DNA of 64,000 nucleotides from Kangiellaceae bacterium (GTDB lineage Bacteria > Pseudomonadota > Gammaproteobacteria > Enterobacterales > Kangiellaceae), in NCBI GenBank assembly GCA_965230335.1, contig CBDDKS010000006.1:1569321-1633320 (forward strand), given 5' to 3'. Below the pieces are notes generated by a model that was given only the letters and a program-made list of their open reading frames with translations, was not told the DNA's origin and made no database searches. Below, one piece after another: positions 20,332-37,628 of this stretch. Positions within the stretch are counted from its first letter, which is position 1. Each line of letters starts with the position of its first letter. Position numbers and translations under genes: made by a program.

Positions 20332-20481
20332 TTTTTACCATTTAAATTTTCAATTAACCTCATACAAATAATTTCATATAAATAAAGGTTGTTTCAATTT
20401 CATTTGATTGTTAATATCAGATGGAGTTGAGTAATTGCTTTTTTGTGCAGCTTTATTAAGAATTTTAGGAGATACTAAAAT

Positions 20482-20763
20482 ATGAATGAGACTGAAATGT
20501 ATGCAGCTCCAAAATCCGAGCTAGAAAATAATGAGTTGAATACTAAGAAGGCAAATTGGATTATTGTTGATTTGTCTTTTTGGTTAGCACACCTTGGATT
20601 TATATTTGGTATGATCATGATGGCTCCATCATCTGATAATGATAGTGCCATGTCTGTAATATCATTAATATTACTGATAACAGGAATGCTTTCAATGGTT
20701 GTATATTTTTTCGCAATTGGTATTTTTGGTGGGATTAAAAATATAATTATTAAAGTCGCTTGA
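20482..20763 (+). CDS. Small membrane protein (93 aa, 2 TM).
   Basis: ORF with an SD-like GGAG 8 nt upstream. Hydrophobic. Confidence 0.35.
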   Translation: MNETEMYAAPKSELENNELNTKKANWIIVDLSFWLAHLGFIFGMIMMAPSSDNDSAMSVISLILLITGMLSMVVYFFAIGIFGGIKNIIIKVA

Positions 20764-20804
20764 ATGCTTTATTTTATCTATTGGAATGATCTCATTCCTA
20801 ACTG

Positions 20805-21419: not shown

Positions 21420-21421
21420 GT

Positions 21422-22978
21422 TTATTGATACCCTCTGATTTTTTTAAATACAAAATGCAGGGATTGCTTTTTTGCATCAAATATCCGACCACCGGTTATG
21501 TTACTTAATTCATTCATTTCTACATCATTGCTGTCGCCAAATAAGATAGGAAAGGTTTTAATTCTTTGGGCTTCTTGAGGTAATCGTCGAAATATTTTTT
21601 TAAAGGTTTGAAAATTTATACCAGATTGATTTGAACCATCGGTTAATAATAATATGCTATAAAATTTTTCAGGATTTTCATTTTGTGCTTTAATGGCCAT
21701 TTTATAAGCTGTATCTAATGCGCTATAGATTGCAGTGCCTCCAAGTGCCTGTAAATGTTGAACATGGTTTCTTAATGACTGCATATCTGTGCTGTTATAA
21801 TCTGTATTTTGAATTTTAAAATCAACGGGATTAAATGCTTTGCTATTGAAAGGTATGATAGTAATAGTTTCCCGTGCACGAAAGCGTGAGAATTGCCCCG
21901 TTATTGATTGATCGGCACCAGTCAGGTTAGAAATAGACTGCTTAAGTAAATTAATATTTGACCCTTGCATAGAGCCACTGATATCGAGAACAAAAAAGGT
22001 ATGTGAAGGTTTCCTATGTTTGTCCAAATAAGCAAATAATAGTTTATCAATTTCAGATAAAGTTCTAGGGAAAGGTAATTCTACAAGTAATTGTTTTGGA
22101 AAGCGGGCATCAGGTTTTACTTTAGGATTAACAGGACGTCTTTGTGTGGTTTTCATAATCTGGTTTTGTAATTTTTCGGACATTAAACATTCAACCAGTT
22201 TATGAAAAGTTTTCTTTTTATTATTGTTTAACAGCATGAGTGGATAATCAGCCGTAATAATACCTTCTTGTGGATAAACTAGAATGAGTTTTTCTTTTAA
22301 ATTACCGCTTGCATTCAATTGCATTAATACAGATTCGTAGTTAATAATAGCATCCAGACGATCTTGTTCTCTGACATAAGATTCTGCCAACCAGCCTGAG
22401 CTACCCGCTGTTAGATCCTGCCCTTTAAAAAATTGTTTCAATGTTTTTTCATCTATAGAAGACAGATCAAAAGTGTCTTGGCTATTTGAAAATGCAGCAG
22501 CAACACCGACCAAGGCAGTAAAACCTGAGTTACTTGAAGCAGGATTTGTCATAGCATAACGCAATTGTCCTGTTGCTGCTTTATTGGCAATATCACGCCA
22601 GGTTAGATTTTTATTAGTATCCCAACCAAATTTTCTCGCTTGGCTTTCTTTAATTCCCATAACAACGGGAGACAGCATAATTTTATCTTGAGAAACAATT
22701 CGATTTCGTGTTTGTTCAAGTAATGTTAAATATTTTGCATGTGAAAACCAAGCTATATCATAAAGCTCTCCTCCAGCCAGTTTTTCTGCACCATCCAATG
22801 TTCCAATATATTGAAACTCTAATGTTGCATTAGCGCACTTCTGAATATCGTTTAATAAGGGCTTGATATCTTTTAATTCAGAGCCTGCCAATATAGAAAA
22901 ACTTTCTTTAGGCGTATCACTACAACTAAAGAGAAGACAAGAGAAGAAAAATACAGTAACAATATGACGTAAGACCAT
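21422..22978 (-). CDS. Lipoprotein with an N-terminal PBP-like (solute-binding-like) domain fused to a C-terminal vWA domain with an intact MIDAS.
   Basis: Lipobox LFSCS. MIDAS DISGSMQG...T(A)...LLLTDGSNQSG in the C-terminal 200 aa. The N-terminal approx. 280 aa are periplasmic-binding-protein-like. Confidence 0.75.
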   Translation of the reverse strand: MVLRHIVTVFFFSCLLFSCSDTPKESFSILAGSELKDIKPLLNDIQKCANATLEFQYIGTLDGAEKLAGGELYDIAWFSHAKYLTLLEQTRNRIVSQDKIMLSPVVMGIKESQARKFGWDTNKNLTWRDIANKAATGQLRYAMTNPASSNSGFTALVGVAAAFSNSQDTFDLSSIDEKTLKQFFKGQDLTAGSSGWLAESYVREQDRLDAIINYESVLMQLNASGNLKEKLILVYPQEGIITADYPLMLLNNNKKKTFHKLVECLMSEKLQNQIMKTTQRRPVNPKVKPDARFPKQLLVELPFPRTLSEIDKLLFAYLDKHRKPSHTFFVLDISGSMQGSNINLLKQSISNLTGADQSITGQFSRFRARETITIIPFNSKAFNPVDFKIQNTDYNSTDMQSLRNHVQHLQALGGTAIYSALDTAYKMAIKAQNENPEKFYSILLLTDGSNQSGINFQTFKKIFRRLPQEAQRIKTFPILFGDSNDVEMNELSNITGGRIFDAKKQSLHFVFKKIRGYQ

Positions 22979-23010
22979 AATAAGACTCTGTTGATTAAAA
23001 TGTTAACTAT

Positions 23011-24225
23011 TTATAAAGACAGAACATTTTCTGATGATAATGTTTTCATTTCTTCATTACGAACACGATCAACATAGGATTGTGCTTTTGTAATTTCACT
23101 GCTGAGTGTATCTACAGTTTGTTGCATATTATTTAATGCTTTCACTTTAAAGTCGGCCATCATATCCATGGTATCGTATATGTTTTGAAAAGCAGTTTTT
23201 AATTTATTTAATTCAACCGTTGAACTTGCAGCATCCTGCTGAATTTGTCCTGACTGTTGTTTCAGCATTTCAGAGGTGCCCTGGATTAAGTTGCTGGTTG
23301 TTTTATTTAAAGCTGTAATCTGGTCTAAAACAAGCTTCTGATTATTCAATGCGCTGGCCACCATAACGGCTGTTCTTAAAGCAGATACAGTGGTGGTGGT
23401 TGCCCGGTCAACACCTTTAATGAGTTCCAAATTATTTTTTCGTATCATATCCAATGCTAAGTATCCCTGAATACTAATTGCCTCTTGTGTTAGGAGGTCG
23501 GTAATTTTTTGTCGCACATAAAAGAGAAGTTCTTCTTTTATAATTCGGGATTTTTCTTTATCAGTAGTTTCTATTTCAGCAATTTTTTCTGTAAGTACTT
23601 TGTCGATTTCCTTGCCAATATAAGTATATTTTTTTAATTTTTGCATGATTTCCCATAAATTGGCTTTTTCCTGTTCAATCGTTGCATTATCTTTTTTTAA
23701 TTCATCCTGACTTCTATATAGTGTTTCTATGATGGCATTAATATGGGTTTGGGAAGATTGATATTTTGCAAAGTAATCACGAATTTTATTGCCAAAAGGA
23801 ATAAAACCAAATAATTTCTTAGGTGTGAATAAATCACCTTGTGATGATGGATCAAGATCTTCTACTTTTTGACGCAGTTCAACTAAAGCCTGACCAACCG
23901 TTGTGTTTTCTCCCGCAACTTGAGCGGTTAATACTTTTGTTGGACGATCAAGCATTCTATTGGAGGAACCCGCAGCATCATAAATCTCTTTTGTGCCCAT
24001 GGCATGTACAGCATTCAGCTTTTCTTTAAAATCGTCACTGTGTATATCTAAAGAAATAATGGCATTCACAAATTCATGTACTCGTTCATTGAGACTTTGT
24101 TTTTCGTCGTCATTGAGTGATACCATTTCATAGGCTTTTTCAGGTGCAACTGCTTTAACAGCTTCAGGTGGTGATAAGACAAGAGTGGTTTCGGATGAAT
24201 CAATAGTGCTATTTAATTGTTCCAT
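23011..24225 (-). CDS. telA: TelA-family (toxic anion resistance / KlaB) protein.
   Basis: 404-aa all-alpha protein. The segments KIRDYFAKYQSSQTHINAI and QGYLALDMIRKNNLELIKGVDRATTTT parallel conserved TelA/YaaN regions. GAGGA lies 7 nt upstream of the ATG. Confidence 0.7.
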   Translation of the reverse strand: MEQLNSTIDSSETTLVLSPPEAVKAVAPEKAYEMVSLNDDEKQSLNERVHEFVNAIISLDIHSDDFKEKLNAVHAMGTKEIYDAAGSSNRMLDRPTKVLTAQVAGENTTVGQALVELRQKVEDLDPSSQGDLFTPKKLFGFIPFGNKIRDYFAKYQSSQTHINAIIETLYRSQDELKKDNATIEQEKANLWEIMQKLKKYTYIGKEIDKVLTEKIAEIETTDKEKSRIIKEELLFYVRQKITDLLTQEAISIQGYLALDMIRKNNLELIKGVDRATTTTVSALRTAVMVASALNNQKLVLDQITALNKTTSNLIQGTSEMLKQQSGQIQQDAASSTVELNKLKTAFQNIYDTMDMMADFKVKALNNMQQTVDTLSSEITKAQSYVDRVRNEEMKTLSSENVLSL

Positions 24226-24269
24226 ATGGTATTCCTCATGTTATAGATTGAAGTATATTGTTTTCATAG

Positions 24270-25337
24270 TTAATATTGTTGTTCAATACGTTGGATCATA
24301 GCTTCAACGAATTCGTAAGCTGGAGGTTCAATAACATTAACCAGATTCTTACCAATTTTGATTTGATGTTTTATAATAAATTCATTGAAATATCCCGTAT
24401 TGCTGTTTCTGAAACCATGTTCAATAGCAAGCTTTTGTAACTCGATATCAGTTTCCAATATCTCTCCAAAACGATGACCATCTTCAGATAAACTGACTAG
24501 CACATGTTTGGTAAATAAAGAAGGTTCTGGGTACAGTAAAACCATATCAGAATAAATGCTGCCATCTTTTAAAGAGGCTTTATAAATAAATTGTGATTCA
24601 TAAATTAAAACCAAAGGTGCTTTCCCCATACCCATAACAAGATAATCATCAAAAGGTACAGCAGAGGAATACTCAATAAACCCCTGGCGTTTAAATAATT
24701 CTGAAACACTATGAATAATAGGGTCAATTTGTTCGTAGTTTTGTATAACGTTATTGTTATTTAACACGTAGCTGGCTAATGATAAATACATTGCAGCAGA
24801 ATTTGATTTACGAATATCTGTTGAATTAATTAATAATGCTTTGTTTACAGAGAAAGAGCTATTATTTTTTAAATCTTTCCAACGCATTTTTTTATTGAAA
24901 GCATCCAAGTAAGCTTTCATGTTTAACGTATAATAATGGCCTTTATTGGTTACCATTCCATTGTCTTGTAAAATGTTAACGATAGGCTGCCAGGAAGCGA
25001 TGGCAATAGGTGTAAAGAAAGGGTTATAGGATTTTGTATTTGAATTTTCTCTACGAATTTTTTCAGCAGCAGGTAATCCTGCTGGGAACGCATAATCGTA
25101 TTTTGTTAAATCAAAGCTGGTTGCAATTTGTCGAGAACCTGCTTTTTGATATTTTACTATAAATCCAAGCTTTTTAAGTCGTTTTTGAACTCTGGGATCA
25201 TCAAAAAAAGGGCGTTTTTCTGAACCAATGAGTCCTATGATTTCGACGGCTTTTTGTGATTGCAAAGAATCATATATTGCATAGCCAACGCCAGAGAGTA
25301 GCAAGATACTTAAAATAGGTCCCAAAATTTTTTTCAT
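24270..25337 (-). CDS. Secreted PBP-like protein, paralogous to the N-terminal domain of the vWA lipoprotein.
   Basis: Signal/anchor MKKILGPILSILLLSGVGYA. Over its first 60 aa the segment AVEIIGLIGSEKRPFFDDPRVQ...YQKAGS...TKYDYAFPAG shows loose pattern similarity (I-G/A-GSE, Y..G/AGS, YD) with SFSILAGSELKDIKPLLNDIQ...YIGTLDGAEKLAGGELYDIAW of the neighbouring gene. GAGGA RBS. Confidence 0.45.
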   Translation of the reverse strand: MKKILGPILSILLLSGVGYAIYDSLQSQKAVEIIGLIGSEKRPFFDDPRVQKRLKKLGFIVKYQKAGSRQIATSFDLTKYDYAFPAGLPAAEKIRRENSNTKSYNPFFTPIAIASWQPIVNILQDNGMVTNKGHYYTLNMKAYLDAFNKKMRWKDLKNNSSFSVNKALLINSTDIRKSNSAAMYLSLASYVLNNNNVIQNYEQIDPIIHSVSELFKRQGFIEYSSAVPFDDYLVMGMGKAPLVLIYESQFIYKASLKDGSIYSDMVLLYPEPSLFTKHVLVSLSEDGHRFGEILETDIELQKLAIEHGFRNSNTGYFNEFIIKHQIKIGKNLVNVIEPPAYEFVEAMIQRIEQQY

Positions 25338-25545
25338 AGATTCCTCAAAAAATGCGTTATATATTACAAAAGTACATTTTACCTCTTATTCTAAAAGAGA
25401 TCTAATTTATCAATAAAGTAAGGTTAACTATGAAAGAGCAGCAAGCTCTATATAAATCCATATATTTTATAGCAACATAAAGATAGTAACATATATTGGT
25501 TTTTCATATACAGCCTTCATAAAATTGTCATAAAAATGACTTTTT

Positions 25546-28500
25546 TTATGACTTCTTGTCTTTTGCAGATGATTGTTTCTCACTGGAATGAGTGATGCTG
25601 GGTTCAGATAATACCTGTTTAAGCTGTCCCACTTGATGTTCAATCTCACCCATTTTTTCATGTGTTTTTAAATCAATGTTCAATTTACCATCCATAATTT
25701 TAATTAAAGGTAATAAACTGTTTTGCATCGTATCGGTTAATGCTTCCAGTAAGGTTTTAATACCTGGAACCGGTTGATTAATGACTTCAACTTTTGGCTG
25801 TGGAAAGTCCATTGCTGTGACGAGTTTGTCAAAATGTTTAGATAGTTCTGAGAGCAGTTTTTTTGTCAACGCATCATCCAAAGTTTGACCCTGTGTTGAG
25901 TTTGTCTGTGATGATGACAGGATTTCTTTGAAATGTGCGATATTATTAACCAGTTCATGAAGCTGACGTACTATTTTTTCACCGGCTTCCATATTGCTGC
26001 CACCAATGGCCTTATTTTTTATAAATTCTTTTTTAATAGCTTCCCAGCGTTGCTTTTCATCGTTACTTAATATATTTCTTAATTCATTCAGTTTAAGTAG
26101 ATTTTCTTCGGTACTTTTTGTTAATAATTGTGCTTCGCCCTGATAATGATCACTGATCAATTGTTCAAGCTCATCATCTGTCATACTTGCAGAAATTTTT
26201 TCCGCAATTTTATTCATATTACGATAGGAGCCTTGCAATTTAAAAGGTGGTTCAGTTCGGTAGCGATCGTCCTGTGCACTGGAAGCAATGTAACATTGAT
26301 TCACTTTTGAAATAATAGATTGAATACTAAACAATTTATCTAAAATGTTGGTGATTTCTTTAATTTCTGAAAGGCTATATTGATGCTCTAATTCATTGGT
26401 TGATGTTTGCTGATTTTTTGTCATATCAATGAATCGATAAATGTCATCCATTGATCGTGATACCAGGGGAGCCAATATAGCATTTGAAGTCAGTGCATTT
26501 TCGATATAACTTAAATGGAAGATGTCATCCTGACCACCGAGTATATCGCCCAGGTTATAAATATCTGCACGATTAGCTAGCATATCAGGTATTTTAAAAA
26601 CATCACCTGATTCTGTATAAGGATTGCCTGCCATAACCACACAAAACTTTTTGCCTCGCATATCATATGTTTTCGCTTTGTTCTTCCAGACACCTTCGAT
26701 TCGTCTTGTACCATCACATAAAGATATGAATTGCTGTAAAAATTCAGGATTGGTATGTTGAATATCATCCAGATAGAGCATAACGTTATTGCCCATTTCA
26801 AAAGCCAGATTGAGTTTTTCAAGCTCTTGTCTTGCACTGCTGTTATCCGCCTGCTCTGGATCAACCGAAGTCGTATGATGTCCAATGGCTGGGCAGTTAA
26901 TACGCATAAAAATAAGTCCCAAGCGACTGGCAATGTACTCCATTAATGTTGTCTTACCATAGCCTGGTGGTGAAATCATAATAAGCAACCCCATCAAGTC
27001 CGTTCGTTTTTTGTCACCAACAGTTCCTAACTGTTTGGCAAGATTATCACCGATGATAGGTAAGTAAGCCTGATTAATGAGTTGATTTCTGACAAAAGAA
27101 GTTAAAGGCCGAGGAATAAAATCTTTAATACGCAAAGCATTTCTTTGTTCTTGAATCAGATGCTGTCTCATTTTTTGGAATTTATGATAGCCAGGCTCTA
27201 TAAAATGCTTATGGTAAGCAAGGCGTTCCAGATAATCATCCAATTCTATGGTCATGGTTTGTTGTTGAATACGAGGATGTTGGCCTAATAAATGCTCAAT
27301 ATTCAGTTGAATATCCAATTGTTGCACATCAAAAGCAAGATGTTGTTGTGTGTTCAATAGGGCAATCGCTTCAGGAAGGAAGCTTTTGTAGGATGTTTTA
27401 TTATGACTGATAATAAACGCATTCAACCATGCGGATGTCAATAGCCATTGTTTGCCAATATCACCATTGAGTGTTTTTAAAGCTTTCTGATAATCTTTCC
27501 ATAAATCCTGAGTTTCCAGATTGAGTTTAAAATCATGTACGATGGAGTCGGCATATTTTGAACTGACAAAATGACCCTGTTCTTTGCCAAGTTCGACCAC
27601 CAGATATTCAGAGGCCAGTTGAGATGTGGTTTCTTTAACTGATATATGGTGTTCTGTTGTAAATTCTTCCAGATGCGATGCGATTTCTTGATTAAGCTCC
27701 ATAATGGCAGTATTCGAAGAAAATATATTGGAAATTTTCTGTGCATTTCTTGCTCGAATAGGCCAGTTCTTACACATGGGTTTTTCTTTATGATTTGCCC
27801 AAAATACAACCGCAACTGCACGAGCTAAAGCAGGATATTTTAATGCACCAGAAGTATTATAAGCATCAATCAGTTTTTCCAATAAGAGTGCAGCATCATG
27901 ATCGTGAATACCTTTTTCATAGCCTTCCTGATATCGACTTACAATGTATTGGGAGATGAGTTGTTTCAGAGCCGATTTATCGGATACTGCATCAGTCAGT
28001 AATGACCACGTTAAATTCTCTTTATTTTCTAATGCCGATTGAATAATAGAGTAAGATAAATATTCTCCACGATAAATCTCTTCTGTTTCAGAATATAAAG
28101 ACAGATGCCAAAAGGGTTTAAGTTCATCAATTTCTGGGTGATTGATTTTTTCAAAAAAATCAGTTCCTGTTAAATGTACATAGAGTGCATCTTCACGATG
28201 GATGATAGTGACATCCAATTCTTGTGAATTGACAGAAAATTTATGTCGGGGGCCCAGTTTAATCACTTGCCCACCTTCTTCATAAATATCTGCTTTATCC
28301 CTCAGCATTTTTAAAGAAAGTTCTTTACTGGCTTTTAATTTTCCTAATAGCGTTTCTGCTTTTACGGTATCATCATAAGTTCTGAGTTTGTCACAAAGTT
28401 CATTAATTCTTAAAACCAAGGTATCTGAAGAGAAAAAAGTATTCAATTCATCCTGTGTATTCAGTTTTTTTGTTCTTCTTTGAATACTTTCTAAAACACG

Positions 28501-30858
28501 TGTGCCTGTATTAAATAAAGATTGAATTTTCTTTTGCTGTTCATCTAATAGAAATTGTTTATGAGATTCAAATGATTCAAAGATATCATCTCTTTTGGAT
28601 AATATTTCAGAAAGGTATTGTTCAGATTCTCCAAACTGGCTTTCTAGTTCGTCTAGCTGTATCAGTAATTTCGAGAGTTCTTCATCACATCGTTCCGGTG
28701 TTTTGCACAGATTCATGGCACTTTGAATACTTTGTTCTAACAAACGGAATCTTGCTGAAAACTGAGCACTGTTTTCCTTGGTGCGAAAGCTTTCTTGTTG
28801 ATTAATAAATACGGCTTTTTGTTGGTTAAGTCTGGCATAAAACTCGGAGATAGCATCTACAATGTGTGTCTGTATTGTTGCGTCTGTGACGGGTAAGCTG
28901 GATACGAGTTCTGATAATAAATCCAATCCTTCAGCCAATTGCTCCAGTTTGTTTATAAAGGGTTCGAGTTCTACTAATTTCTTGCAATGACCTGAGTCTT
29001 TAATAATATGTTCCAGTTCATCATGATAATGGACAAAGGCATTATCTTGTGAAAGAAATGCTAATGTTTTTTCATTGAGCTCTTTTTCTTTTTCTAATAA
29101 GGTTTGTTCCAGATCATGCACTTTGTTTAAATTAATATAACGGTATTCCTTAATGGTTAATAAATGTCCACGTTGTTCTTTGATTTTTTGTAGATGTTCC
29201 GCAAATAGTTGAGGAGAGTCCCAGGCGTCTGGTTGCAATTTATCTAATAATTCTTCTTGATCAGTTTCCGCTTCAAGGAGTTGTTTTTCTGAGTTTTCAC
29301 GAATATGTTTTACTTTTTCGTACTCATCGATAATAGACTCACAAGTCTGTGATACATCTTTTAAATCAGAAGCAATCGTTTCCAGTTCTTTGGATTTTAA
29401 CCAATAGTAATTATCAAAAATTTTTGAGCTGCGTTTTAAAACATCCTGAAAGTGTGTTGAAGAAACATCTTTTTTATCAACTAAACGAACAATAGCAAAT
29501 AGTTCAGAAATGCCACGCACCAATTCAGCATTACCAATTTTTCCATAAAAACTATCACTCTCTGATTGCTGACTGGCATACTCTTCTGAATAAAAAGGGG
29601 TTTGCCATATTTGTATAGGATGAATACGAGTGGCTTCTTCTTCGGCATAGAAAACAACTAATTTGCCATCTGGATAAATACCATAGCCATGACCAAAGAT
29701 AGGATTTTTCATACTTTGGTTAATTAAATTGTATGCAAATAAAGCAACAACATTGTGTTTAGGTTGGTAAAAGATAAAAAGTACATCTTCTCCATTGGGT
29801 GATTTAATCATTCTTTTAAATTTTAATCCATCATAATCATGATTAAATGTTTTGAACTCACTGGTTGTCAAAAAATAACCTTCAGGAAATATCAAACCAT
29901 GATCTTCAGGAAGTTGTATACAGGAATCACCAATAGAATCCAAACGTGTGACGGATTGATCTTTAGTATTAAAAATAAGGTAACGCCAATGTTCCTCTCT
30001 ATAAGGTTTTACCTTGATTAAAATTAATGCACCAACCTGACTATAGAAAAATTCGGCATCATCTAATGATTGTGTGGCATCATCGACTTCTTCTGTATAA
30101 ATACCTTCGCCATTATCTGTATTATCTTCTACCTTGATGGTTAAATGGTGATCTAATGTGTCTATAAAAACAGTATCGAGAATATTAATATGTGGATGAC
30201 GACCTTCAACGATATTTTTATGGTCACATTCTATCCATTCGAAATCATGTGTGGGAGGTAGTTGAATATCACGTTCACCTCGGTTATCGATATAATCAAT
30301 ACTACCATCCTGATGAATATTCCAACGAAATACCCGTATATCCGTTAACTTATCACCTATTTGAAATGCTGCCAGTAAGAGATTATCTTTTCGAACCAAC
30401 TGGGTTAAATAGGCATTTTTGTAATAAGAGTAGAGTTCTTTAAATTCTACTAAAAAAGTATCATTAACCAGAAAACTATCTTTTAAGGGTACATTAATCA
30501 GTTCAAACTTATTATCTACCGATTTAATATGATACAAAGAAAATACATCATCAATTTTGGTTTCTTTTCTTAAACCTAAGAAAACGTTATAGCCAAAAAG
30601 AATTTGGTTACCGATTTGTACCAGATCTCTTGCTTCACAATTATTATCTGTCCTTAAATTAATTCGAGACAAGATAGTCATATCCATATGTTGAAATTCG
30701 TTCAGTCTTTCCTGATTTAATTGTTCAATATGGTTATTTAATGTTTTGCCTTGTTGTTGCAATCTTTGAAAGATAACTTCGTAAGCACCACTTTCCGTTA
30801 CAGTATCATTGATGCTGGTATTCAGAGTACTGCTTTCTTGCTCTTGATTATCTGTCAC
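25546..30858 (-). CDS. Giant (1770 aa) protein with a MoxR/AAA_5-like AAA+ ATPase module near the C-terminus (about aa 1285-1440) and a 1280-aa N-terminal extension rich in coiled-coil.
   Basis: Walker A MISPPGYGKTTL. Walker B VMLYLDDIQH. Sensor-1 VVMAGNPYTESGD. Arg-containing LANRADIY. GTG start at 30858 with GGTGA 5 nt upstream and an in-frame stop 10 codons further upstream. The central approx. 500-1250 aa are strongly helical and coiled-coil. Confidence 0.8.
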   Translation of the reverse strand: MTDNQEQESSTLNTSINDTVTESGAYEVIFQRLQQQGKTLNNHIEQLNQERLNEFQHMDMTILSRINLRTDNNCEARDLVQIGNQILFGYNVFLGLRKETKIDDVFSLYHIKSVDNKFELINVPLKDSFLVNDTFLVEFKELYSYYKNAYLTQLVRKDNLLLAAFQIGDKLTDIRVFRWNIHQDGSIDYIDNRGERDIQLPPTHDFEWIECDHKNIVEGRHPHINILDTVFIDTLDHHLTIKVEDNTDNGEGIYTEEVDDATQSLDDAEFFYSQVGALILIKVKPYREEHWRYLIFNTKDQSVTRLDSIGDSCIQLPEDHGLIFPEGYFLTTSEFKTFNHDYDGLKFKRMIKSPNGEDVLFIFYQPKHNVVALFAYNLINQSMKNPIFGHGYGIYPDGKLVVFYAEEEATRIHPIQIWQTPFYSEEYASQQSESDSFYGKIGNAELVRGISELFAIVRLVDKKDVSSTHFQDVLKRSSKIFDNYYWLKSKELETIASDLKDVSQTCESIIDEYEKVKHIRENSEKQLLEAETDQEELLDKLQPDAWDSPQLFAEHLQKIKEQRGHLLTIKEYRYINLNKVHDLEQTLLEKEKELNEKTLAFLSQDNAFVHYHDELEHIIKDSGHCKKLVELEPFINKLEQLAEGLDLLSELVSSLPVTDATIQTHIVDAISEFYARLNQQKAVFINQQESFRTKENSAQFSARFRLLEQSIQSAMNLCKTPERCDEELSKLLIQLDELESQFGESEQYLSEILSKRDDIFESFESHKQFLLDEQQKKIQSLFNTGTRVLESIQRRTKKLNTQDELNTFFSSDTLVLRINELCDKLRTYDDTVKAETLLGKLKASKELSLKMLRDKADIYEEGGQVIKLGPRHKFSVNSQELDVTIIHREDALYVHLTGTDFFEKINHPEIDELKPFWHLSLYSETEEIYRGEYLSYSIIQSALENKENLTWSLLTDAVSDKSALKQLISQYIVSRYQEGYEKGIHDHDAALLLEKLIDAYNTSGALKYPALARAVAVVFWANHKEKPMCKNWPIRARNAQKISNIFSSNTAIMELNQEIASHLEEFTTEHHISVKETTSQLASEYLVVELGKEQGHFVSSKYADSIVHDFKLNLETQDLWKDYQKALKTLNGDIGKQWLLTSAWLNAFIISHNKTSYKSFLPEAIALLNTQQHLAFDVQQLDIQLNIEHLLGQHPRIQQQTMTIELDDYLERLAYHKHFIEPGYHKFQKMRQHLIQEQRNALRIKDFIPRPLTSFVRNQLINQAYLPIIGDNLAKQLGTVGDKKRTDLMGLLIMISPPGYGKTTLMEYIASRLGLIFMRINCPAIGHHTTSVDPEQADNSSARQELEKLNLAFEMGNNVMLYLDDIQHTNPEFLQQFISLCDGTRRIEGVWKNKAKTYDMRGKKFCVVMAGNPYTESGDVFKIPDMLANRADIYNLGDILGGQDDIFHLSYIENALTSNAILAPLVSRSMDDIYRFIDMTKNQQTSTNELEHQYSLSEIKEITNILDKLFSIQSIISKVNQCYIASSAQDDRYRTEPPFKLQGSYRNMNKIAEKISASMTDDELEQLISDHYQGEAQLLTKSTEENLLKLNELRNILSNDEKQRWEAIKKEFIKNKAIGGSNMEAGEKIVRQLHELVNNIAHFKEILSSSQTNSTQGQTLDDALTKKLLSELSKHFDKLVTAMDFPQPKVEVINQPVPGIKTLLEALTDTMQNSLLPLIKIMDGKLNIDLKTHEKMGEIEHQVGQLKQVLSEPSITHSSEKQSSAKDKKS

Positions 30859-30920
30859 CGGTTCACCTATTGATAAATCATTATTTGTTCAAAATAAAAA
30901 TATATTTACAGTATCATCAG

Positions 30921-30964
30921 GTGTTCTCAATTCATATGGTTAATAATATGGATATTGAGAACAC
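30921..30964. promoter_or_regulatory. Perfect 11-bp inverted repeat (GTGTTCTCAAT-N22-ATTGAGAACAC) in the 127-bp gap between flotillin and the giant ATPase gene. Operator or attenuator candidate.
   Basis: Read directly from the sequence at 30921-30931 and 30954-30964. The 22-nt spacer is itself partially palindromic (TCATATGG...TATGGATA). Confidence 0.4.
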
Positions 30965-30985
30965 TGATTCAAAACAGAATATGTA

Positions 30986-33016
30986 TTATTGATGATTTTC
31001 TGTATTGGTTTGATGGTCGATTTTTTCTGAGCCATTTCCGCCTAATATTTTTGAAAGAAGGGCAGAAATAATAGGGCTTTTCTCAAGAAAACCATCAACA
31101 GCATTTCCCATTCCTAATCCTTTTGCTAATTTATCAAAATAATCATTTTGACCACCAACAATATCAATATTAGCATTTTCCAATGCAGAAGCAATGACAT
31201 TTGCCTGCTCTCCTGCAACAATTTTGCTTGCATCGATATTGGCCAAGGCTTCTTTTAAATGAGCTTCCAATTTAATTTTAAACTCTTCAAATTCTTTAGC
31301 TTCGGGACTCATATTGTTCATGGCAGCAAATTTTTCTACCAACCCTTGTGCCTCTGATTTGGCTTTTTCTAAAATAATTTGTGCTTCAGCCAATCCTTTT
31401 TCTTTATCTGCTTTGGCTTCTGCAATACCTAACTGTTCTGTACCAACGGCTTCTGCTTGTAGTTTTTCTTCCAGGACTTTTGCTTCAGCCAGTCCTTCTT
31501 TTTCAAGTGCAGTTGCTTTTGATTCCTGTACTCTGGCTTCTGATAATCCGACTTCTTCTTTACCTTTTGCTGTCGCATTTAGTTTTTCCAGCATAATGGT
31601 CGCTTCTACTAAACCTTCTTTTTCATCTGCAAGTGCCTTGGCTTCTTTAACTTTTGCTTCGGCTAATCCTGCTGCGGCAAGTTGTGCCTGTTTACCTTCT
31701 GCCAGTTTTTTATCAGATTCTGACTTTTTCGCAGCGGCTTCCAATTCTGCCTGTGCCATCATATTAATTTCTTTAGCTCTATGTAATGCAGATTTTTCTT
31801 CCGCTTCGGCTCGCTTAATCTGATGAATCATAACTTCTTCAGCTTGTGCTTCGGCATCTAATATTTTAACTTGTTTTGAACGATCAGCTTCCGATACTTC
31901 TTTGACTTCTTTAATACGTTCTTCTTCTTCGGCAACCTTGCGTTCTACAGCGATACGTTCACTAATAGTGTTGGCAATAATTTTACGTTCTTCTTCCAAA
32001 TCTTTTTCTTTATTAATTTCTTCAATTTCAACATCTCTTTGACGACTGACAGCTTCTAACTGTTGAGCTTTTAATACTTTTTCTTTTTCTATAACAACGG
32101 CTCTTTCTTTATTTTGTCTGGCAACTTCCACTTGCCTTAAACGATTTTCTTCACGAACTTCAACCTGTTCTGCAACAGCAATACGTGCTTCTTCAGCTTT
32201 TAAATGTTCTTCGGATCGGACTTTTTCAATTTCCGCTTTCTCTCTTGCTTTAACGGTTTCAATTTCTCGTTCTTGCTTGGCTTCAGCATCAGCTTTTTGA
32301 CGTTCTAGAGCAAGTAAAGATTCTTTGGTTTCAACATTCTTTTTAGTGATCGCCAGCTCTTCATCTTTTTCCAGACGATTGGTTTGAATATTTTGTTCTG
32401 CAGTCACTTCAGTAATTCTTCGGATACCTTCAGAATCTAAAATATTATTAGGGTCCAGTTGTGACTTCGGTGTTTGCTCCAAGTAATCAATAGCCACGTC
32501 TTCTAAAACATAACCGTTTAGATCATCGCCAATAACATCAACAATTTTTTCTCTAAAAAGAATTCTATTTTCAAATAAATCCAAAAACACCATATTCTTA
32601 CCTACGGTCTTTAATGCTTCAGAAAACTTTGCATTAAATAATTCATTCACCGCGTCTTTATCAGAGGCTCTATCAACCCCAATGGCTTTGGCCACTTTTA
32701 AGACATCGTCCGGTGTTTCATTCACTCTAAGATAGAAAGCAACGGTAATATCGGCTCTTAAATTATCTTTACAAATCAAACCATCTTTACCTCGTCTATC
32801 AACTTCTAGTGTAATTAACGAAATTTTCATAATTTCCATTTTATGGATAACCGGAATAACAAAGGCACCTGTAAAGCTGACCTTGGGTTTATTAGAGGTA
32901 TTATTAACGATTAATGCATAGCCTTGAGATACTTTTTTATAACATCGAATAATGTATATAATAACAGCGAAAGTAATGAATGTTATAAAACCGATGATTA
33001 AATAAAGTGGTAACAT
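30986..33016 (-). CDS. Flotillin-like SPFH/Band-7 protein (YqiK-like) with an extended repetitive coiled-coil C-terminus.
   Basis: N-terminal TM segment. SPFH domain (VSFTGAFVIPVIHKMEIMKISLITLEV...). Long E/A/K-rich coiled coil with tandem approx. 22-aa repeats such as GLAEAKVKEAKALADEKEGL, GLSEARVQESKATALEKEGL and GLAEAKVLEEKLQAEAVGTEQLG. Confidence 0.85.
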   Translation of the reverse strand: MLPLYLIIGFITFITFAVIIYIIRCYKKVSQGYALIVNNTSNKPKVSFTGAFVIPVIHKMEIMKISLITLEVDRRGKDGLICKDNLRADITVAFYLRVNETPDDVLKVAKAIGVDRASDKDAVNELFNAKFSEALKTVGKNMVFLDLFENRILFREKIVDVIGDDLNGYVLEDVAIDYLEQTPKSQLDPNNILDSEGIRRITEVTAEQNIQTNRLEKDEELAITKKNVETKESLLALERQKADAEAKQEREIETVKAREKAEIEKVRSEEHLKAEEARIAVAEQVEVREENRLRQVEVARQNKERAVVIEKEKVLKAQQLEAVSRQRDVEIEEINKEKDLEEERKIIANTISERIAVERKVAEEEERIKEVKEVSEADRSKQVKILDAEAQAEEVMIHQIKRAEAEEKSALHRAKEINMMAQAELEAAAKKSESDKKLAEGKQAQLAAAGLAEAKVKEAKALADEKEGLVEATIMLEKLNATAKGKEEVGLSEARVQESKATALEKEGLAEAKVLEEKLQAEAVGTEQLGIAEAKADKEKGLAEAQIILEKAKSEAQGLVEKFAAMNNMSPEAKEFEEFKIKLEAHLKEALANIDASKIVAGEQANVIASALENANIDIVGGQNDYFDKLAKGLGMGNAVDGFLEKSPIISALLSKILGGNGSEKIDHQTNTENHQ
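31380..31720. repeat. Intragenic imperfect tandem DNA repeats (approx. 66-bp units) that encode the flotillin coiled-coil repeats.
   Basis: Recurring units of the form GCTTCTGC..AATCC(T/G)ACTT / TTCAGCCA(A/G)TCCTTCTTTTTC on the + strand. This also explains the spurious antisense ORFs at 31314-31823. Confidence 0.6.
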
Positions 33017-33047
33017 AAGGGTTTCCTTTAAGTGAGTTAGTGTGTTG

Positions 33048-33689
33048 TTAATCTAAAATGTTTTTTTCTTGAATGAGATAAATATTAGTTGATGCATCAT
33101 AATCATGGATGACAACGATATCGCCTTTACTAAAAGATTGATTGGTGTGCTTTGTTCTTACTTTGACTATCAGTGATGCACCATCTATGATACATTCGGC
33201 TTCACCAGTTTCTGAGTTAACTTTCAGCGATCGTATTTTACATTCTCGACCAATAAAAGATTTTTGACCTGAATCAGCATACAGTTTTCTAAAGACTTTT
33301 CTTAAGGGTTTAATAATTTGTGCTGTAATCGGTAATGAAAATGCAAAGCTACCAATTAAGACACCAGTACCTAAAACCCACTCTTTAATAAAACCTGAAC
33401 TCATCCAGTTTAATAGATAATGCATCAAGCTGAATGATATAATCCAGGAAACAAAAATAATGATTGTTAGTACAATCATTAACGGAACACCTGTTAATCC
33501 ACAAGAGACAAGAAAGGTTGCAGCACCTGAAATATCAGCACCCTCTGCTTCAATATCAATATCTATATCAAACAAGTCAAAATCGAATAGTCCCAGAGTA
33601 ACTAAAAACCAATAACCGATTAGTATCAATATCATGATCGTGTATACGACTGTTGGGTAATGACTTATTGTTTGTAAAAATGATTCCAT
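33048..33689 (-). CDS. YqiJ/NfeD-like membrane protein, the usual partner of SPFH/flotillin proteins.
   Basis: Three or four TM helices and a C-terminal soluble beta (OB-like) domain (KSFIGRECKIRSLKVNSETGEAECIIDGASLIVKV...GDIVVIHDYD). It is immediately upstream of the flotillin gene, as in E. coli yqiJK. Confidence 0.6.
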   Translation of the reverse strand: MESFLQTISHYPTVVYTIMILILIGYWFLVTLGLFDFDLFDIDIDIEAEGADISGAATFLVSCGLTGVPLMIVLTIIIFVSWIISFSLMHYLLNWMSSGFIKEWVLGTGVLIGSFAFSLPITAQIIKPLRKVFRKLYADSGQKSFIGRECKIRSLKVNSETGEAECIIDGASLIVKVRTKHTNQSFSKGDIVVIHDYDASTNIYLIQEKNILD

Positions 33690-33698
33690 TGAATCCTC

Positions 33699-34277
33699 TT
33701 AATGGTTATAGTGAATTTTTGAAGTGTTTTTCTTTTGATTGACGTACCAGGCACAAAAAACACCACTTAAAAAACCGAATATATGTGCTTCAAAACTAGT
33801 ATTATCCTGGAAATTGACTAATGTAAAAAACAGACCACCGTAAATAAATAAAGAGATTAAGGCAATTAATATACCTCGTATGGAACGATGAAACCAGCCA
33901 AAAGCAATAAGAAATCCCCAGTATCCCATGACTAAACCAGAAGCACCTATGTGTTCTGTGTCTGGGCGTCCAAATAACCATACCAAAATACCACCTATAA
34001 AAACAATGAAGGAAGTGGCAACAGGTAAATGCTTTGTTGAATAAACCAAGATACCCAAAATAAGTAGGGGTAAGCTGTTGGATATTAAATGTTGCATGTT
34101 GCCGTGTAGGAATGGCATAGTAATAATTCCAGTTAAACCATCGAGTTTACGTGGAATTAGTCCAGTAAGTTCATAGCCAAATACAATTTTTGAAATCTGA
34201 ATTAGCCATAAACAAACAATAAAAGCAATAAACCATTTTAGTTGAATACTATTTTTTTTCATCCTAGTTATTTCCAT
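33699..34277 (-). CDS. Rhomboid-family intramembrane serine protease.
   Basis: Six TM core with the catalytic GASGLVMGYWG (GxSG) and the downstream AHIFGFLSG histidine motif. Confidence 0.75.
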   Translation of the reverse strand: MEITRMKKNSIQLKWFIAFIVCLWLIQISKIVFGYELTGLIPRKLDGLTGIITMPFLHGNMQHLISNSLPLLILGILVYSTKHLPVATSFIVFIGGILVWLFGRPDTEHIGASGLVMGYWGFLIAFGWFHRSIRGILIALISLFIYGGLFFTLVNFQDNTSFEAHIFGFLSGVFCAWYVNQKKNTSKIHYNH

Positions 34278-34373
34278 AAACTAAACAACCTACTTTATAC
34301 CATATTTCATAAGCATTCGTCCAGAGAGTTGCTTTTCCTTAAATGTTAGATAGAAGAGATAAACAGGCTTTAA

Positions 34374-34745
34374 TTAGGCTTTTTTAAATAAAGCATTGCT
34401 GGGTTTTCTTTTTAGGCCGGCATCTTCGAGTTTTTTAAGATAATCAGTCCAATTTTTTTCGTAATTTTCTCCGAGCTCTTTTAGTGTACTCCATGTGTAT
34501 AAACCTGAATCATGACCATCGTCAAAATCAATTTTAACGGCATAATGACCAACAGGTTCAATATTGATAATTTGTACATCACTTTTTCCTGAAACCAGTT
34601 GCATAGGACCACCATGTTGACGCACTTCAGCGGATGGTGAAAATACACGTAAATATTCAGCAGGTAATTTATAAGAGATATTTTCAAAATCAACATTAAG
34701 AGTTTTTTGATGCTGGTGGTATTGAATGGTTTTTGGTGCGTTCAT
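34374..34745 (-). CDS. DUF971 (gamma-butyrobetaine hydroxylase-like N-terminal domain) protein.
   Basis: The 123-aa protein has the characteristic L.V.F.DG....Y....LR..CPCA-like core (YLRVFSPSAEVRQHGGPM...IEPVGHYAVKIDFDDGHDSGLYTW). Confidence 0.55.
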   Translation of the reverse strand: MNAPKTIQYHQHQKTLNVDFENISYKLPAEYLRVFSPSAEVRQHGGPMQLVSGKSDVQIINIEPVGHYAVKIDFDDGHDSGLYTWSTLKELGENYEKNWTDYLKKLEDAGLKRKPSNALFKKA

Positions 34746-34800
34746 CGGTCTATTATGTCAGATTATTACCTATCAGGATACTTTTTAATAGAGTTTCAGA

Positions 34801-34827
34801 TATGATGTTATTTTTAATAACATCATA
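34801..34827. promoter_or_regulatory. Perfect 12-bp palindrome TATGATGTTATT-TTT-AATAACATCATA in the divergent promoter region between the DUF971/rhomboid/flotillin block and the HTH-TPR regulator gene.
   Basis: Read directly from the sequence. It lies 56 bp upstream of the minus-strand DUF971 start and 124 bp upstream of the regulator start. Confidence 0.45.
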
Positions 34828-34950
34828 TCTTTACACAATGAATAACCAGACATTTAGTATTGATTTACTTTTGATCACAATAACAAAACTTTCTAAGTAA
34901 TCTCATCTTTAGTTTATAAAATATCTTGAAGATTAAGAGGACGATATTTT

Positions 34951-36258
34951 ATGGTAGATAACACTAAAACATATCAAGTCAACTCTTGTTTTCTAAAATA
35001 TAGAATGCAAGATAAACAATTAACGAATGATGCTTTGATTGCTAAATTTTTTGAAAAAAGTGAAAAGAAAATTGATCCTAGAACAATAACACGATGGAGA
35101 AATGAAAATCCAAAAATTTCAGAAAAAAATCTATATTTATTAACAGAAATACTAGATTGCAATCTGGAAGATTTGATTTATTTACATAATGATCAAATTT
35201 TTTTTGATATTGATAGAGAACGTTATGAGTTAGCTAAACAGTTTTCAGATACTTCTGCATTTTTAACATTATACGCATGGGGTGATTTAAAGAGTGGTAT
35301 TAATCTTATTACTTCCTTTTTAGTTCTTCCCGTACCTTTAAGTTGGGCTGAAAAAGTAAAGCTTTATTCTGCAGCCGCTTTTTTGCATTGCATGAATAAT
35401 GAGATAATTAAATCAAAAAAATATTGCTATATGATTTTGAAATGTGAAGATGATGAAAAATTTGTTGAAGCAAAAAAAATAGCTTATTTTATTTTGGGGC
35501 TTATTGAAATGTGTGATGCATTTTATGAAAAAGCAATGGATTATTATAATTTATCTTTAAACTATAATTCTTGTGTTAAAACAAAAAAAAATGAGTTTTC
35601 AGAGAAAGAAACAAGTAATTTTTATTATATTGATTTATTAAATAATATATTTATTGGTATCGTTATGAACCACCAAGGGTATTTGGAATCCAGCAAACAA
35701 CATTTTGAAAAATTTGTTACTGTGCTTAAAAAAAGTAATACGGTGTTAGAAACAACGATTTCATCTATGGGTCTATTCGGTTGGATCAATTTGTTAATTG
35801 AATTCGATGAAATTAAACAAGCAAAAAAAGAATTGATTGTTGCAAAAAGAATTGCAAGCAAACAGTATAATAATATATGTTTGTTAAAGTTTAATATGTT
35901 AGATGCATGGATAAAAATTAAAGAAAAGAAATATCAGGAAGCTCAAAAAGTGTGTGATGAAGTTATGAATATTTATCCTTTAAATTATCCTTCTTACAAA
36001 GCTTTTGAAATTGCAGCAATGGTATACAGAAAAAATAATGATATAGAAAAATTAAATTTTATACTTAACTTATCACTTGATAAATTTGATAACAAGCCAT
36101 GCATGTCTGGTATATATAAAGAGTTTGGTTTTTATTATATGCAACATAAAAATAATGAAAAAGCAGGATATTATTTTTCAAAAGCGCTTGATGCATATAA
36201 ACGGTCAGATGCTATGCCTAGATTTGATTTTTTAAAAACATGTATAGATTTGTATTAG
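34951..36258 (+). CDS. Transcriptional regulator with an N-terminal HTH (XRE-like) and a C-terminal TPR-like helical repeat domain.
   Basis: HTH region LTNDALIAKFFEKSEKKIDPRTITRWRNENPKISEKNLYLLTEIL. The C-terminal 300 aa are Tyr/Asn/Lys-rich helical repeats. It is divergently transcribed from the membrane block. Confidence 0.6.
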   Translation: MVDNTKTYQVNSCFLKYRMQDKQLTNDALIAKFFEKSEKKIDPRTITRWRNENPKISEKNLYLLTEILDCNLEDLIYLHNDQIFFDIDRERYELAKQFSDTSAFLTLYAWGDLKSGINLITSFLVLPVPLSWAEKVKLYSAAAFLHCMNNEIIKSKKYCYMILKCEDDEKFVEAKKIAYFILGLIEMCDAFYEKAMDYYNLSLNYNSCVKTKKNEFSEKETSNFYYIDLLNNIFIGIVMNHQGYLESSKQHFEKFVTVLKKSNTVLETTISSMGLFGWINLLIEFDEIKQAKKELIVAKRIASKQYNNICLLKFNMLDAWIKIKEKKYQEAQKVCDEVMNIYPLNYPSYKAFEIAAMVYRKNNDIEKLNFILNLSLDKFDNKPCMSGIYKEFGFYYMQHKNNEKAGYYFSKALDAYKRSDAMPRFDFLKTCIDLY

Positions 36259-36441
36259 ACTAATCTAAAATTCAATAAGGTTTTCTTTAGATAGAGTACT
36301 ATATCTTTTTATCGGACTATTTGTATAAACTGTTATTTTATTTGTATTAACATTATAAAGAGCGTTGACTCGGATTAGTTAAAGTGGTATTTATCCTTCA
36401 ATAAATGAGATGATTCTCTGGTTTAAAGGTTCATATATACA

Positions 36442-37125
36442 ATGAAAAAAAGTCTGCATGTTATTTTTATCATTTGGATGGTTATTTTTAGTGATCTGGT
36501 CTTTGCAAAAAGTACTTGCTATGGCACAACAGCCAATGGAAAGTTGGAAAATGCTGTTCAATTGCCAAAATCAGGGGATAATTTTATTGGATACAGTAAT
36601 TTTGCACGTTATTTAGGACGAACTTATGTGCATTCTGCGGTTAAAGACATCATGATAGAATCTTACCAAATGTTAAAAGATTCGATGCCGGATAAAGTGT
36701 ATAAGTATGCAGAAACCGGATTTAAAAAAGGAGGTAGGTTTAAACCACATAAAACCCATCAAAATGGATTATCTGTTGATTTTATGGTGCCTGTAATGAA
36801 TCAAAAGGGTCAATCTATTCATTTGCCAACACATATGATGAACCGTTATGGTTATGATATAGAATTTAATGCACATGGACTCTATGAGCATTTTAGAATA
36901 GATTTTGAAGCTATGGCTGAACATATATGGGCATTACATCTTGTTGCTCAGAAAAAAGGATATGGATTAAAACGTGTTATTTTTGATCTTAAGTTGCAAA
37001 AACATCTTTTCAATACCAAAAAGGGAAAGCTTTTAAAAAAACAGGTTGTGTTTTCAAAGAAGAAGGCATGGGTTCGACATGATGAGCACTATCATGTCGA
37101 CTTTGATATTCCCTGCAAAAAATAA
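36442..37125 (+). CDS. mepA: Penicillin-insensitive murein endopeptidase (peptidase M74).
   Basis: Signal peptide. LAS-type metallopeptidase motifs HQNGLSVDF and HDEHYHVDF. Size and pattern match E. coli MepA. Confidence 0.85.
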   Translation: MKKSLHVIFIIWMVIFSDLVFAKSTCYGTTANGKLENAVQLPKSGDNFIGYSNFARYLGRTYVHSAVKDIMIESYQMLKDSMPDKVYKYAETGFKKGGRFKPHKTHQNGLSVDFMVPVMNQKGQSIHLPTHMMNRYGYDIEFNAHGLYEHFRIDFEAMAEHIWALHLVAQKKGYGLKRVIFDLKLQKHLFNTKKGKLLKKQVVFSKKKAWVRHDEHYHVDFDIPCKK

Positions 37126-37256
37126 TCATCACCAGATTTAGTCATGTTATAGAATAGTAGACACAATTCATTGGTAGCTTTTAAAGAAAGGCTTTATAAA
37201 AAATATCATGGATGTTATGATAATTTTTTTATTTTTCACTGCCAGAGAACGCTATT

Positions 37257-37628
37257 GTGGACTATTCCCTGATTAAAATGCTCCATATGTCATTTGCCGG
37301 TTTATCTTTATTGGGATTTTTAATCCGTGGTTATTGGATGATAGTAGAATCTGATTTTTTAAATAAAAAACTAGTAAAAATATTGCCCCATATTATTGAT
37401 ACAGGGTTGCTTGTTACAGCGATTATTCTGGTTATGTTAAGTAGAATGTATCCTTTTACTGTCGATTGGGTAACATTGAAAGTAGTATTACTGATTGTTT
37501 ATATTATTTCTGGGACTATTGCATTAAAACGTGGAAAAAATAAACAACAAAGAATCATGGCTTTTGCTTTTTCGTTATTGGTTATTTTAAGTATTTTTGC
37601 TATTGCATCGATAAAGCCGCATTTTTAA
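37257..37628 (+). CDS. SirB2-family inner membrane protein.
   Basis: The 123-aa protein has four TM helices with the SirB2-like pattern (KMLHMSFAGLSLLGFLIRGYW...). The true start may be the internal Met. Confidence 0.5.
   Translation: MDYSLIKMLHMSFAGLSLLGFLIRGYWMIVESDFLNKKLVKILPHIIDTGLLVTAIILVMLSRMYPFTVDWVTLKVVLLIVYIISGTIALKRGKNKQQRIMAFAFSLLVILSIFAIASIKPHF

Follow-up and report, generated by a model that had tools for sequence, protein, structure and literature searches.

A role in organising and repairing membranes is ascribed to bacterial flotillins and to PspA/ESCRT-III-like proteins, and to our knowledge experiments have revealed no dedicated ATP-driven partner of either. The closest described system is an operon analysed, by comparative genomics only, by Ravi et al. 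2024 (mSystems, PMC11237479), which encodes a CesT/Tir-PspA pair, a YqiJ/YuaF protein, a flotillin, a giant AAA+ ATPase and, sometimes, a PLD protein; "abbreviated operons" without PspA were also described there. Here we report on a stretch of 64,000 nucleotides from a Kangiellaceae bacterium (GenBank assembly GCA_965230335.1, contig CBDDKS010000006.1, positions 1,569,321 to 1,633,320; hereafter the window, in whose own numbering all coordinates are given), in which genes for a YqiJ-like protein, a flotillin and a giant DUF3686 AAA+ ATPase follow one another on the minus strand. On balance we favour the view that this cassette, which together with a rhomboid protease gene in front of it occupies 34277-25546, is a PspA-less, "abbreviated" form of the PspA-associated flotillin operon, because homologues of DUF2170, PspA and PLD are absent anywhere in the 64 kb.

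The window and the PspA-associated operon (PMC11237479) have in common, in one and the same gene order, a probable YqiJ-like multi-transmembrane protein, a flotillin built from a transmembrane segment, an SPFH domain and a coiled coil, and a giant AAA+ protein with an N-terminal DUF3686/coiled-coil part. The pair CesT-like (DUF2170)-PspA, and in some cases PLD, is found in relatives of the window. The window differs in that it lacks CesT/Tir-PspA and PLD, has a rhomboid gene upstream and is followed by a TelA module; neither rhomboid nor TelA is mentioned by Ravi et al. 2024 (PMC11237479). The window is a further member of a system already described by comparative genomics, to which the rhomboid accessory and the boundary before the TelA genes add detail.

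A smaller version of the arrangement is found in E. coli yqiJ-yqiK and B. subtilis yuaF-floT (Hinderhofer et al. 2009, PMC2636767), which resemble the window in gene order, in membrane anchoring and in the combination of an SPFH2 flotillin with an NfeD-like protein. The first-pass annotation of the window had called NfeD-like plus SPFH a canonical pair, which agrees with this literature, and the pair is found in the window. Homology to the E. coli proteins is clear for the flotillin and moderate for the YqiJ-like protein. Unlike the window, E. coli has sibD/ibsD after yqiK and no DUF3686 ATPase, and the window flotillin falls into a compact family of its own that is missed by Pfam Band_7. Structural precedents with the same SPFH fold, which appear among the fold matches of the flotillin model, exist for a cage with an NfeD partner (QmcA-YbbJ, 8z5g) and for one with an AAA+ enzyme inside (HflK/C-FtsH, 7wi3 and 9cz2). 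However, FtsH is anchored in the membrane and is a classical-clade AAA+ protease, whereas the DUF3686 ATPase is soluble by prediction, three times larger, without a protease domain and very divergent in its AAA+ core.

Conservation and identity of the YqiJ-flotillin-ATPase genes

The window was compared with two samples of loci. The first was anchored on the flotillin and consisted of 80 genome loci, 78 of which extend far enough to test linkage to the ATPase gene. The second, independent sample was anchored on the ATPase and consisted of eight loci with 36-50% ATPase identity, from Streptomyces, Nonomuraea, Deinococcus, Hymenobacter, Halomonas, Proteus, Vibrio campbellii and the plasmid pQBR103. 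The YqiJ-like gene, the flotillin gene and the DUF3686 ATPase gene occurred in this order and on one strand in 78 of the 78 testable flotillin-anchored loci, and the same triad was present in all eight ATPase-anchored loci, which represent Actinomycetota, Deinococcota, Bacteroidota and several Gammaproteobacteria. This arrangement is far beyond chance, which is not true of the DUF971 gene, the HTH-TPR gene or the TelA block that also lie near the flotillin gene in the window. It is strongly supported, therefore, that the giant ATPase belongs to the flotillin block as its third core gene, and not to TelA. The first-pass annotation had tied the flotillin to the genes downstream of it as a set; the AAA+ part of that proposal stands (78/78 and 8/8), whereas the TelA/vWA part does not (0/80 and 0/8). 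It had also taken the 127-nucleotide gap after the flotillin gene as the start of a separate operon. The length given was exact, but the gap is the usual spacer of the cassette, which has a median of about 120 nucleotides across the relatives, so that the window is typical in this respect.

Clustering of the open reading frames of the flotillin-anchored loci recovered, upstream of the triad, DUF2170/YjfI in 57 of 80 and PspA/IM30 (PspA_IM30) in 60 of 80, and a PLD-family gene (PLDc_2) directly follows the ATPase gene in about 20. In the Kangiellaceae-like loci a small conserved protein of about 110 residues with no Pfam match is encoded between PspA and the rhomboid or YqiJ gene (L016 8239-8559, L046 8348-8737 and 14 others); none is present in the window. 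A fused super-cluster is carried by the Pseudomonas fluorescens SBW25 megaplasmid pQBR103 (L125, 1-12247), where the order is PspA, rhomboid, DUF2491, DUF350, DUF1190, a glutathionylspermidine-synthase-like gene, YqiJ-like, SPFH and DUF3686 ATPase. The part up to the glutathionylspermidine-synthase-like gene is the yjfJKLMC set. This megaplasmid offers a genetically tractable place to study the cassette.

The flotillin gene (33016-30986, minus strand) encodes 676 residues. As a single sequence the protein had no Pfam match even at E<=10 and no sequence match in PDB, and it scored 18 bits against the NCBIfam FloT model, whose cut-off is 700. These misses are a limit of model sensitivity for this subfamily and are not evidence against homology. 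Residues 1-200, searched against 1.84 billion cluster representatives, returned a compact family of 1663 clusters at 50% identity with E<=0.001, and there are 7941 homologues, many of them named "flotillin family" or "YqiK". Identity is 60-74% across Gamma-, Beta- and Zetaproteobacteria, the nearest relatives being those of Pleionea/Aliikangiella (Kangiellaceae) at 73-74%. Divergent members of the family do reach the Pfam cut-offs, P0246 and P0269 for Band_7 and P0255 for Flot. A profile made from near-identical homologues matched nothing in PDB, but a deeper alignment succeeded: a 50-sequence family profile matched human flotillin-1 (9bq2_B) over the whole SPFH domain with E=6e-6. Comparison of the family with E. 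coli YqiK by hhalign gave a probability of 99.9% and E=6e-32. An AlphaFold2 model of residues 1-230, computed from the deeper alignment, reached a predicted local distance difference test score (pLDDT) of 97.4, and its best Foldseek match was the flotillin cage 9bq2_B (E=9e-10), the top 30 all being SPFH cage proteins (flotillin, prohibitin, HflK/C, stomatin, erlin, QmcA). The full-length model of 676 residues, built on a shallow alignment, had a pLDDT below 50 in the SPFH region and was left out of the fold search. Because of the family profile, the hhalign match to YqiK and the Foldseek matches to SPFH cages, we identify the protein as a YqiK-type flotillin with an SPFH fold. It begins with one transmembrane helix (hydrophobic segment 1-27; helix 2-25 in the 1-230 model), followed by the SPFH domain at about 26-185 and a helical region rich in E, A and K up to about residue 615, in which the full-length model placed helices at 195-567 with moderate confidence.

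The gene directly upstream (33689-33048, minus strand), separated by 31 nucleotides in the window, encodes a predicted multi-transmembrane protein of 213 residues that is probably YqiJ/YuaF-like (DUF1449, NfeD-related), although the support is weaker than for the flotillin. A YqiJ-like gene holds this position in 79 of the 80 flotillin-anchored and all eight ATPase-anchored loci. Pfam YqiJ_N was matched below its cut-off (15 bits and E=0.027 for the window; at best 21 against 23 bits for relatives), NCBIfam did not recognise the single sequence, and neither that sequence nor the family profile found a relative in PDB. The hhalign comparison of the family alignment with E. coli YqiJ gave a probability of 90% and E=1.6e-6 over 150 columns. 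The N-terminal part is hydrophobic, with segments at 11-40, 55-94 and 105-123 and an acidic loop, and the family has a conserved C-terminal part of about 65 residues, a candidate soluble beta (OB-like) domain, that contains the block G..VR...G.A....GA.L...R....GD.V.

The ATPase gene (30858-25546, minus strand) encodes 1770 residues, in which Pfam matched DUF3686 (40-485, E=3e-186), DUF7902 (606-688, E=3e-22) and AAA_5 (E=3e-7). The protein is laid out as DUF3686, a helical region with DUF7902, a divergent AAA+ core at about 1280-1440 and a C-terminal helical extension; a beta-propeller fold was assigned to the N-terminal domain in PMC11237479. A literature search found no paper naming DUF3686. 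Across 71 homologues there is almost no variation in the Walker A motif SPPGYGKTT, the Walker B motif YLDDIQ, a sensor Asn and an Arg. The protein has no hydrophobic segment, pointing to a soluble protein; it is weakly similar to VCP-like ATPases in PDB, and a Pfam scan found no DNA-binding, nuclease or protease domain in it. On the metagenome contig L133 (12381-17649) the ATPase is called as two genes that overlap by a few bases, one of 1039 residues with DUF3686 and DUF7902 and one of 718 residues with the AAA+ part, which is either a natural split or a frameshift.

The rhomboid gene and the flotillin-ATPase spacer

The rhomboid gene (34277-33699, minus strand; Pfam E=3.4e-19) lies nine nucleotides upstream of the YqiJ-like gene and encodes 192 residues from its first ATG. 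The start is ambiguous, as the open reading frame runs from 34277 while an identical database protein, P0271 (187 residues), starts from Met6 at 34262. The protein contains the rhomboid motifs H-x4-H-x3-N (HGNMQHLISN), GASG and AHxxG (AHIFG), and the catalytic motifs are kept in 16 cassette-linked orthologues, which are 33-53% identical. By its motifs it is apparently a short intramembrane serine protease of the six-transmembrane type that appears catalytically competent. Rhombosortase identity was ruled out by the NCBIfam model TIGR03902, against which the protein scored 26 bits with a cut-off of 84.

The first-pass annotation had suggested that a rhomboid-flotillin linkage would be worth attention. 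The linkage does recur, in a minority of cassettes. In 12 Kangiellaceae-like loci and L133 the rhomboid gene immediately precedes YqiJ, in three Pseudomonas loci it overlaps the ATPase gene at its end, and in pQBR103 it stands directly after PspA; in L035 it is 2.7 kb off and on the opposite strand. Because they are different positions relative to the cassette, the three arrangements argue for repeated recruitment. The rhomboid is a facultative accessory and not a core part of the cassette. A rhomboid subfamily dedicated to the cassette was rejected, as homologues at 37-41% identity occur in unrelated contexts.

The spacer between the flotillin and ATPase genes (30985-30859, 127 nucleotides, minus strand) has a minimum free energy of -25.1 kcal/mol (z=-2.65), and none of 200 shuffled sequences folded as well. 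It contains a perfect inverted repeat of 11 nucleotides with a loop of 22 (30921-30931 / 30954-30964), whose stem-loop has about -19 kcal/mol, and a sigma-70-like match at 30972-30943 overlaps this repeat. The spacers of relatives are structured as well, 38 of 67 having z<-2, measured against mononucleotide shuffles, which is a lenient control. A consensus scan found no strong intrinsic terminator in the 127-nucleotide spacer or in the 208-nucleotide gap after the ATPase gene. An intrinsic terminator that separates two operons was rejected as a general explanation of the spacer hairpin, as no U-tract directly follows the stem and only 5 of 68 spacers are terminator-like. The inverted repeat may instead be an attenuator, an RNA-stability element or an operator, and we infer that the spacer is an expression-tuning element or a promoter region and not a frontier between unrelated operons.

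The spacer also seems to be a hot spot for insertion. In nine loci it holds cargo, comprising two PDDEXK_2 transposase genes, NYN and PIN nucleases, a methyltransferase, DUF4124, an alpha/beta hydrolase and a globin-coupled GGDEF protein; the loci include L012 (12093-13993), L051 and L055 (about 11.9-16.7 kb), L071, L040 and L041. That these genes are extra components of the cassette was rejected, the cargo being unrelated. Its presence implies that the ATPase gene can probably be expressed on its own.

The TelA module and other neighbours

The window contains nine open reading frames on the minus strand in an unbroken run from 34745 to 20805. The coordinates and order that the first-pass annotation gave for the four co-oriented genes DUF971, rhomboid, YqiJ-like and flotillin are confirmed by the map of open reading frames, as is its uninterrupted one-strand block of about 14 kb, which measures 13.9 kb. 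The gaps along the block are, in order, 96, 9, 31, 127, 208, 44, 32 and 2 nucleotides. The four genes after the ATPase encode p355 (25337-24270, 355 residues), a membrane-anchored, SBP-like protein that matches no Pfam family; TelA (24225-23011, 404 residues, Pfam E=3e-88); SBP-vWA (22978-21422, 518 residues), a lipoprotein-like protein with Pfam VWA and SBP_bac_11 and a lipobox-like LLFSC near its N-terminus; and p204 (21419-20805, 204 residues), a membrane protein that matches no Pfam family. p355 resembles the SBP part of SBP-vWA (E=2e-4) as a distant paralogue. The module resembles TelA/Ter stress-response sets (Anantharaman et al. 2012, cited in PMC7824862) in having a bona fide TelA and a vWA protein, but no TerB, TerC or TerD gene was seen in the window block, and the other loci examined gave no link of the module to the cassette.

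The first-pass annotation had placed the ATPase in a "TelA/AAA+ operon". None of TelA, p355, SBP-vWA and p204 was found beside the flotillin or AAA+ genes in the 80 flotillin-anchored or the eight ATPase-anchored loci. In the other direction, 40 metagenome loci were sampled through TelA, and none of the 40 contained a flotillin, YqiJ or DUF3686 gene, not even the six whose upstream flank extends over about 9-10 kb. The order p355-TelA-SBP-vWA-p204 recurred in about 19-21 of the 40. In the nearest relative of TelA, at 73% identity, the module follows an intergenic region of its own of 660 nucleotides, and a divergent gene adjoins it. Gene order in relatives, on which the annotation had proposed to judge the linkage, is conserved between flotillin and ATPase and not between flotillin and TelA, and the TelA/AAA+ unit has to be given up. 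In our judgement p355-TelA-SBP-vWA-p204 (25337-20805) is likely to be an autonomous, envelope-associated operon that is independent of the flotillin cassette, and the two are probably conserved modules that have become neighbours only in this genome. TelA as a general replacement for PspA was rejected, as it was found in none of the about 20 PspA-less loci.

An AU-rich hairpin of 10 bp (25527-25536 / 25543-25552) overlaps the stop codon of the ATPase gene and is followed by AAUUUUAU, a U-rich tail. The consensus terminator scan missed it, as it has fewer than three G-C pairs. Judged by its sequence it looks like a weak terminator, which, together with the gap of 208 nucleotides, would fit a boundary before the TelA genes.

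The remaining neighbours are a DUF971/GBBH-like_N gene (34745-34374, minus strand, 123 residues, Pfam E=2.4e-25), 96 nucleotides upstream of the rhomboid gene, and the divergent HTH-TPR gene (34951-36258, plus strand). Neither was a neighbour in any of the 88 loci (80 flotillin-anchored and eight ATPase-anchored), and both are unrelated neighbours outside the conserved cassette. The divergent gene is where the first-pass annotation had placed a flanking regulator, although the label "regulator" depends on an HTH_26 match that at 20.5 bits stays below the cut-off of 22 and is accompanied by weak TPR matches. Between the two genes lies a perfect palindrome of 15 nucleotides (AGATATGATGTTATT AAA AATAACATCATATCT; 34798-34812 / 34816-34830), a candidate operator in this divergent intergenic region. 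An Rfam scan of 20000-37500 gave no match. The sole Ter-related gene near any other cassette is a TerD-family gene on a Streptomyces plasmid (L122, 16137-16670), about 4 kb from the flotillin-ATPase pair and on the opposite strand; its proximity is probably coincidental.

Possible function of the cassette

The gene content would be compatible with the following mechanism. The flotillin, anchored by its one N-terminal helix, and its NfeD-like partner would build an SPFH assembly, either a cage or a patch, at the inner membrane on its cytoplasmic side. Recruited there through its N-terminal DUF3686/coiled-coil part, the giant ATPase would use ATP to remodel or disassemble the scaffold (and, in genomes that encode PspA, its polymers as well) or to pull client proteins out of the membrane; an ESCRT-III/Vps4 precedent has been argued in PMC11237479. 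Where a rhomboid is present, it may cleave transmembrane clients or a subunit within the same microdomain. The structured spacer of about 120 nucleotides probably sets differing expression levels or holds a separate promoter for the ATPase gene.

A bolder version of this mechanism draws on the mitochondrial SPY complex (PMC10818064), which combines the SPFH protein SLP2/STOML2, the rhomboid PARL and the AAA+ protein YME1L, and whose three protein classes the window has by gene linkage. By this analogy the rhomboid would be an integral subunit in those lineages that have it, the cassette a bacterial counterpart of the SLP2-PARL-YME1L hub and the DUF3686 protein the long-sought ATP-dependent remodeller of bacterial SPFH and PspA assemblies. 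We regard this as possible but unlikely. The SPY complex differs in that its SPFH protein is stomatin-like and not flotillin-like, and the likeness is one of analogy only, as the AAA+ protein of the window has no protease domain and a rhomboid accompanies a minority of cassettes. If the analogy were true, an SPFH microdomain would unite intramembrane cleavage with ATP-driven extraction or remodelling for the quality control of membrane proteins. That the adjacent TelA module was recruited here in place of the missing PspA pair is a still weaker addition to it.

Several points weigh against the reading of the genes as a functional cassette of this kind, or narrow it. What the sequences show is gene identity, fold, motif conservation and synteny; the formation of a complex, the target of the ATPase and the substrate of the rhomboid are deduced. 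As nine spacers hold unrelated cargo, co-transcription of the flotillin and ATPase genes is not required and a tight stoichiometric coupling is not implied. Most cassettes lack a rhomboid, and more distant homologues of it (37-41% identity) are found in unrelated contexts. The absence of a protease domain from the ATPase makes the HflK/C-FtsH and SPY analogies loose. Finally, the comparison genomes reach about 74% flotillin identity, so that the adjacency to TelA is judged beyond the organism's own genus.

The block could also be read, as in the first-pass annotation, as a single super-operon of 14 kb in which the flotillin scaffold organises a TelA/vWA/AAA+ membrane complex. Its nine genes all point the same way and lie close together, neither the 127- nor the 208-nucleotide gap gave a strong intrinsic terminator in the consensus scan, and AAA+/vWA pairings are common in other systems. 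TelA and flotillin are, moreover, both regarded as sub-membrane or envelope-stress proteins (PMC7824862). This reading is nonetheless improbable, since the TelA-module genes are absent from 80 of 80 flotillin-anchored and eight of eight ATPase-anchored loci and the module recurs alone, in its nearest relative with an intergenic region and a divergent neighbour of its own. The flotillin and TelA blocks are thus unlinked in related loci whichever of the two is taken as the anchor, and the complex of flotillin with TelA and vWA proteins is not upheld. About 20 loci have no nearby PspA pair, and TelA takes its place in none of them; SBP-vWA resembles an exported lipoprotein, in contrast to the cytoplasmic ATPase; and the weak hairpin with its U-rich tail stands at the ATPase stop codon.

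Two further explanations leave the TelA genes aside. One is that the cassette is a horizontally spreading anti-phage or anti-invader defence system, with the AAA+ protein as sensor or effector and the membrane proteins as effectors of abortive infection. Its occurrence on megaplasmids and chromids (pQBR103; Streptomyces, Deinococcus and Hymenobacter plasmids) would fit, as would a flotillin identity of 60-70% between distant classes, which could reflect horizontal transfer, the nuclease and transposase cargo of some spacers, the PLD-family gene adjacent in other loci and the discussion of Ter/TelA genes in phage conflict (PMC7824862). We give it little credence, as none of ten window proteins matches a PADLOC model, the very high sequence conservation and fixed gene order are unlike typical defence islands, and the genes that regularly accompany it (PspA, CesT-like and the polyamine genes yjfKLMC) speak for envelope homeostasis (PMC11237479). 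The other is that the giant protein is a DNA-repair ATPase whose adjacency to the flotillin gene is mechanistically meaningless, which we consider highly improbable. Pfam describes DUF3686 as "ATPase involved in DNA repair", NCBI homologues are named "DNA repair ATPase" or "DNA repair protein", and RuvB_N is weakly matched around Walker A. However, these matches span the P-loop only (about 45 residues, 16-17 bits against cut-offs of >27 and 280), Pfam detected no DNA-binding or nuclease domain, and 86 of 86 loci link the ATPase to two membrane proteins, and often to PspA, which points to a membrane-associated role. We found no basis for the name, which databases apply wrongly.

The preferred reading, an abbreviated flotillin operon next to an independent TelA module, has practical consequences. 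An experiment designed around a "TelA/AAA+ complex" would be built on the wrong unit. The recurrent, facultative rhomboid provides a testable bacterial link from intramembrane proteolysis to SPFH scaffolds, and a giant AAA+ protein that is genetically locked to a flotillin/NfeD pair across several phyla is an obvious candidate for the ATP-driven partner of flotillins and PspA/ESCRT-III-like proteins.

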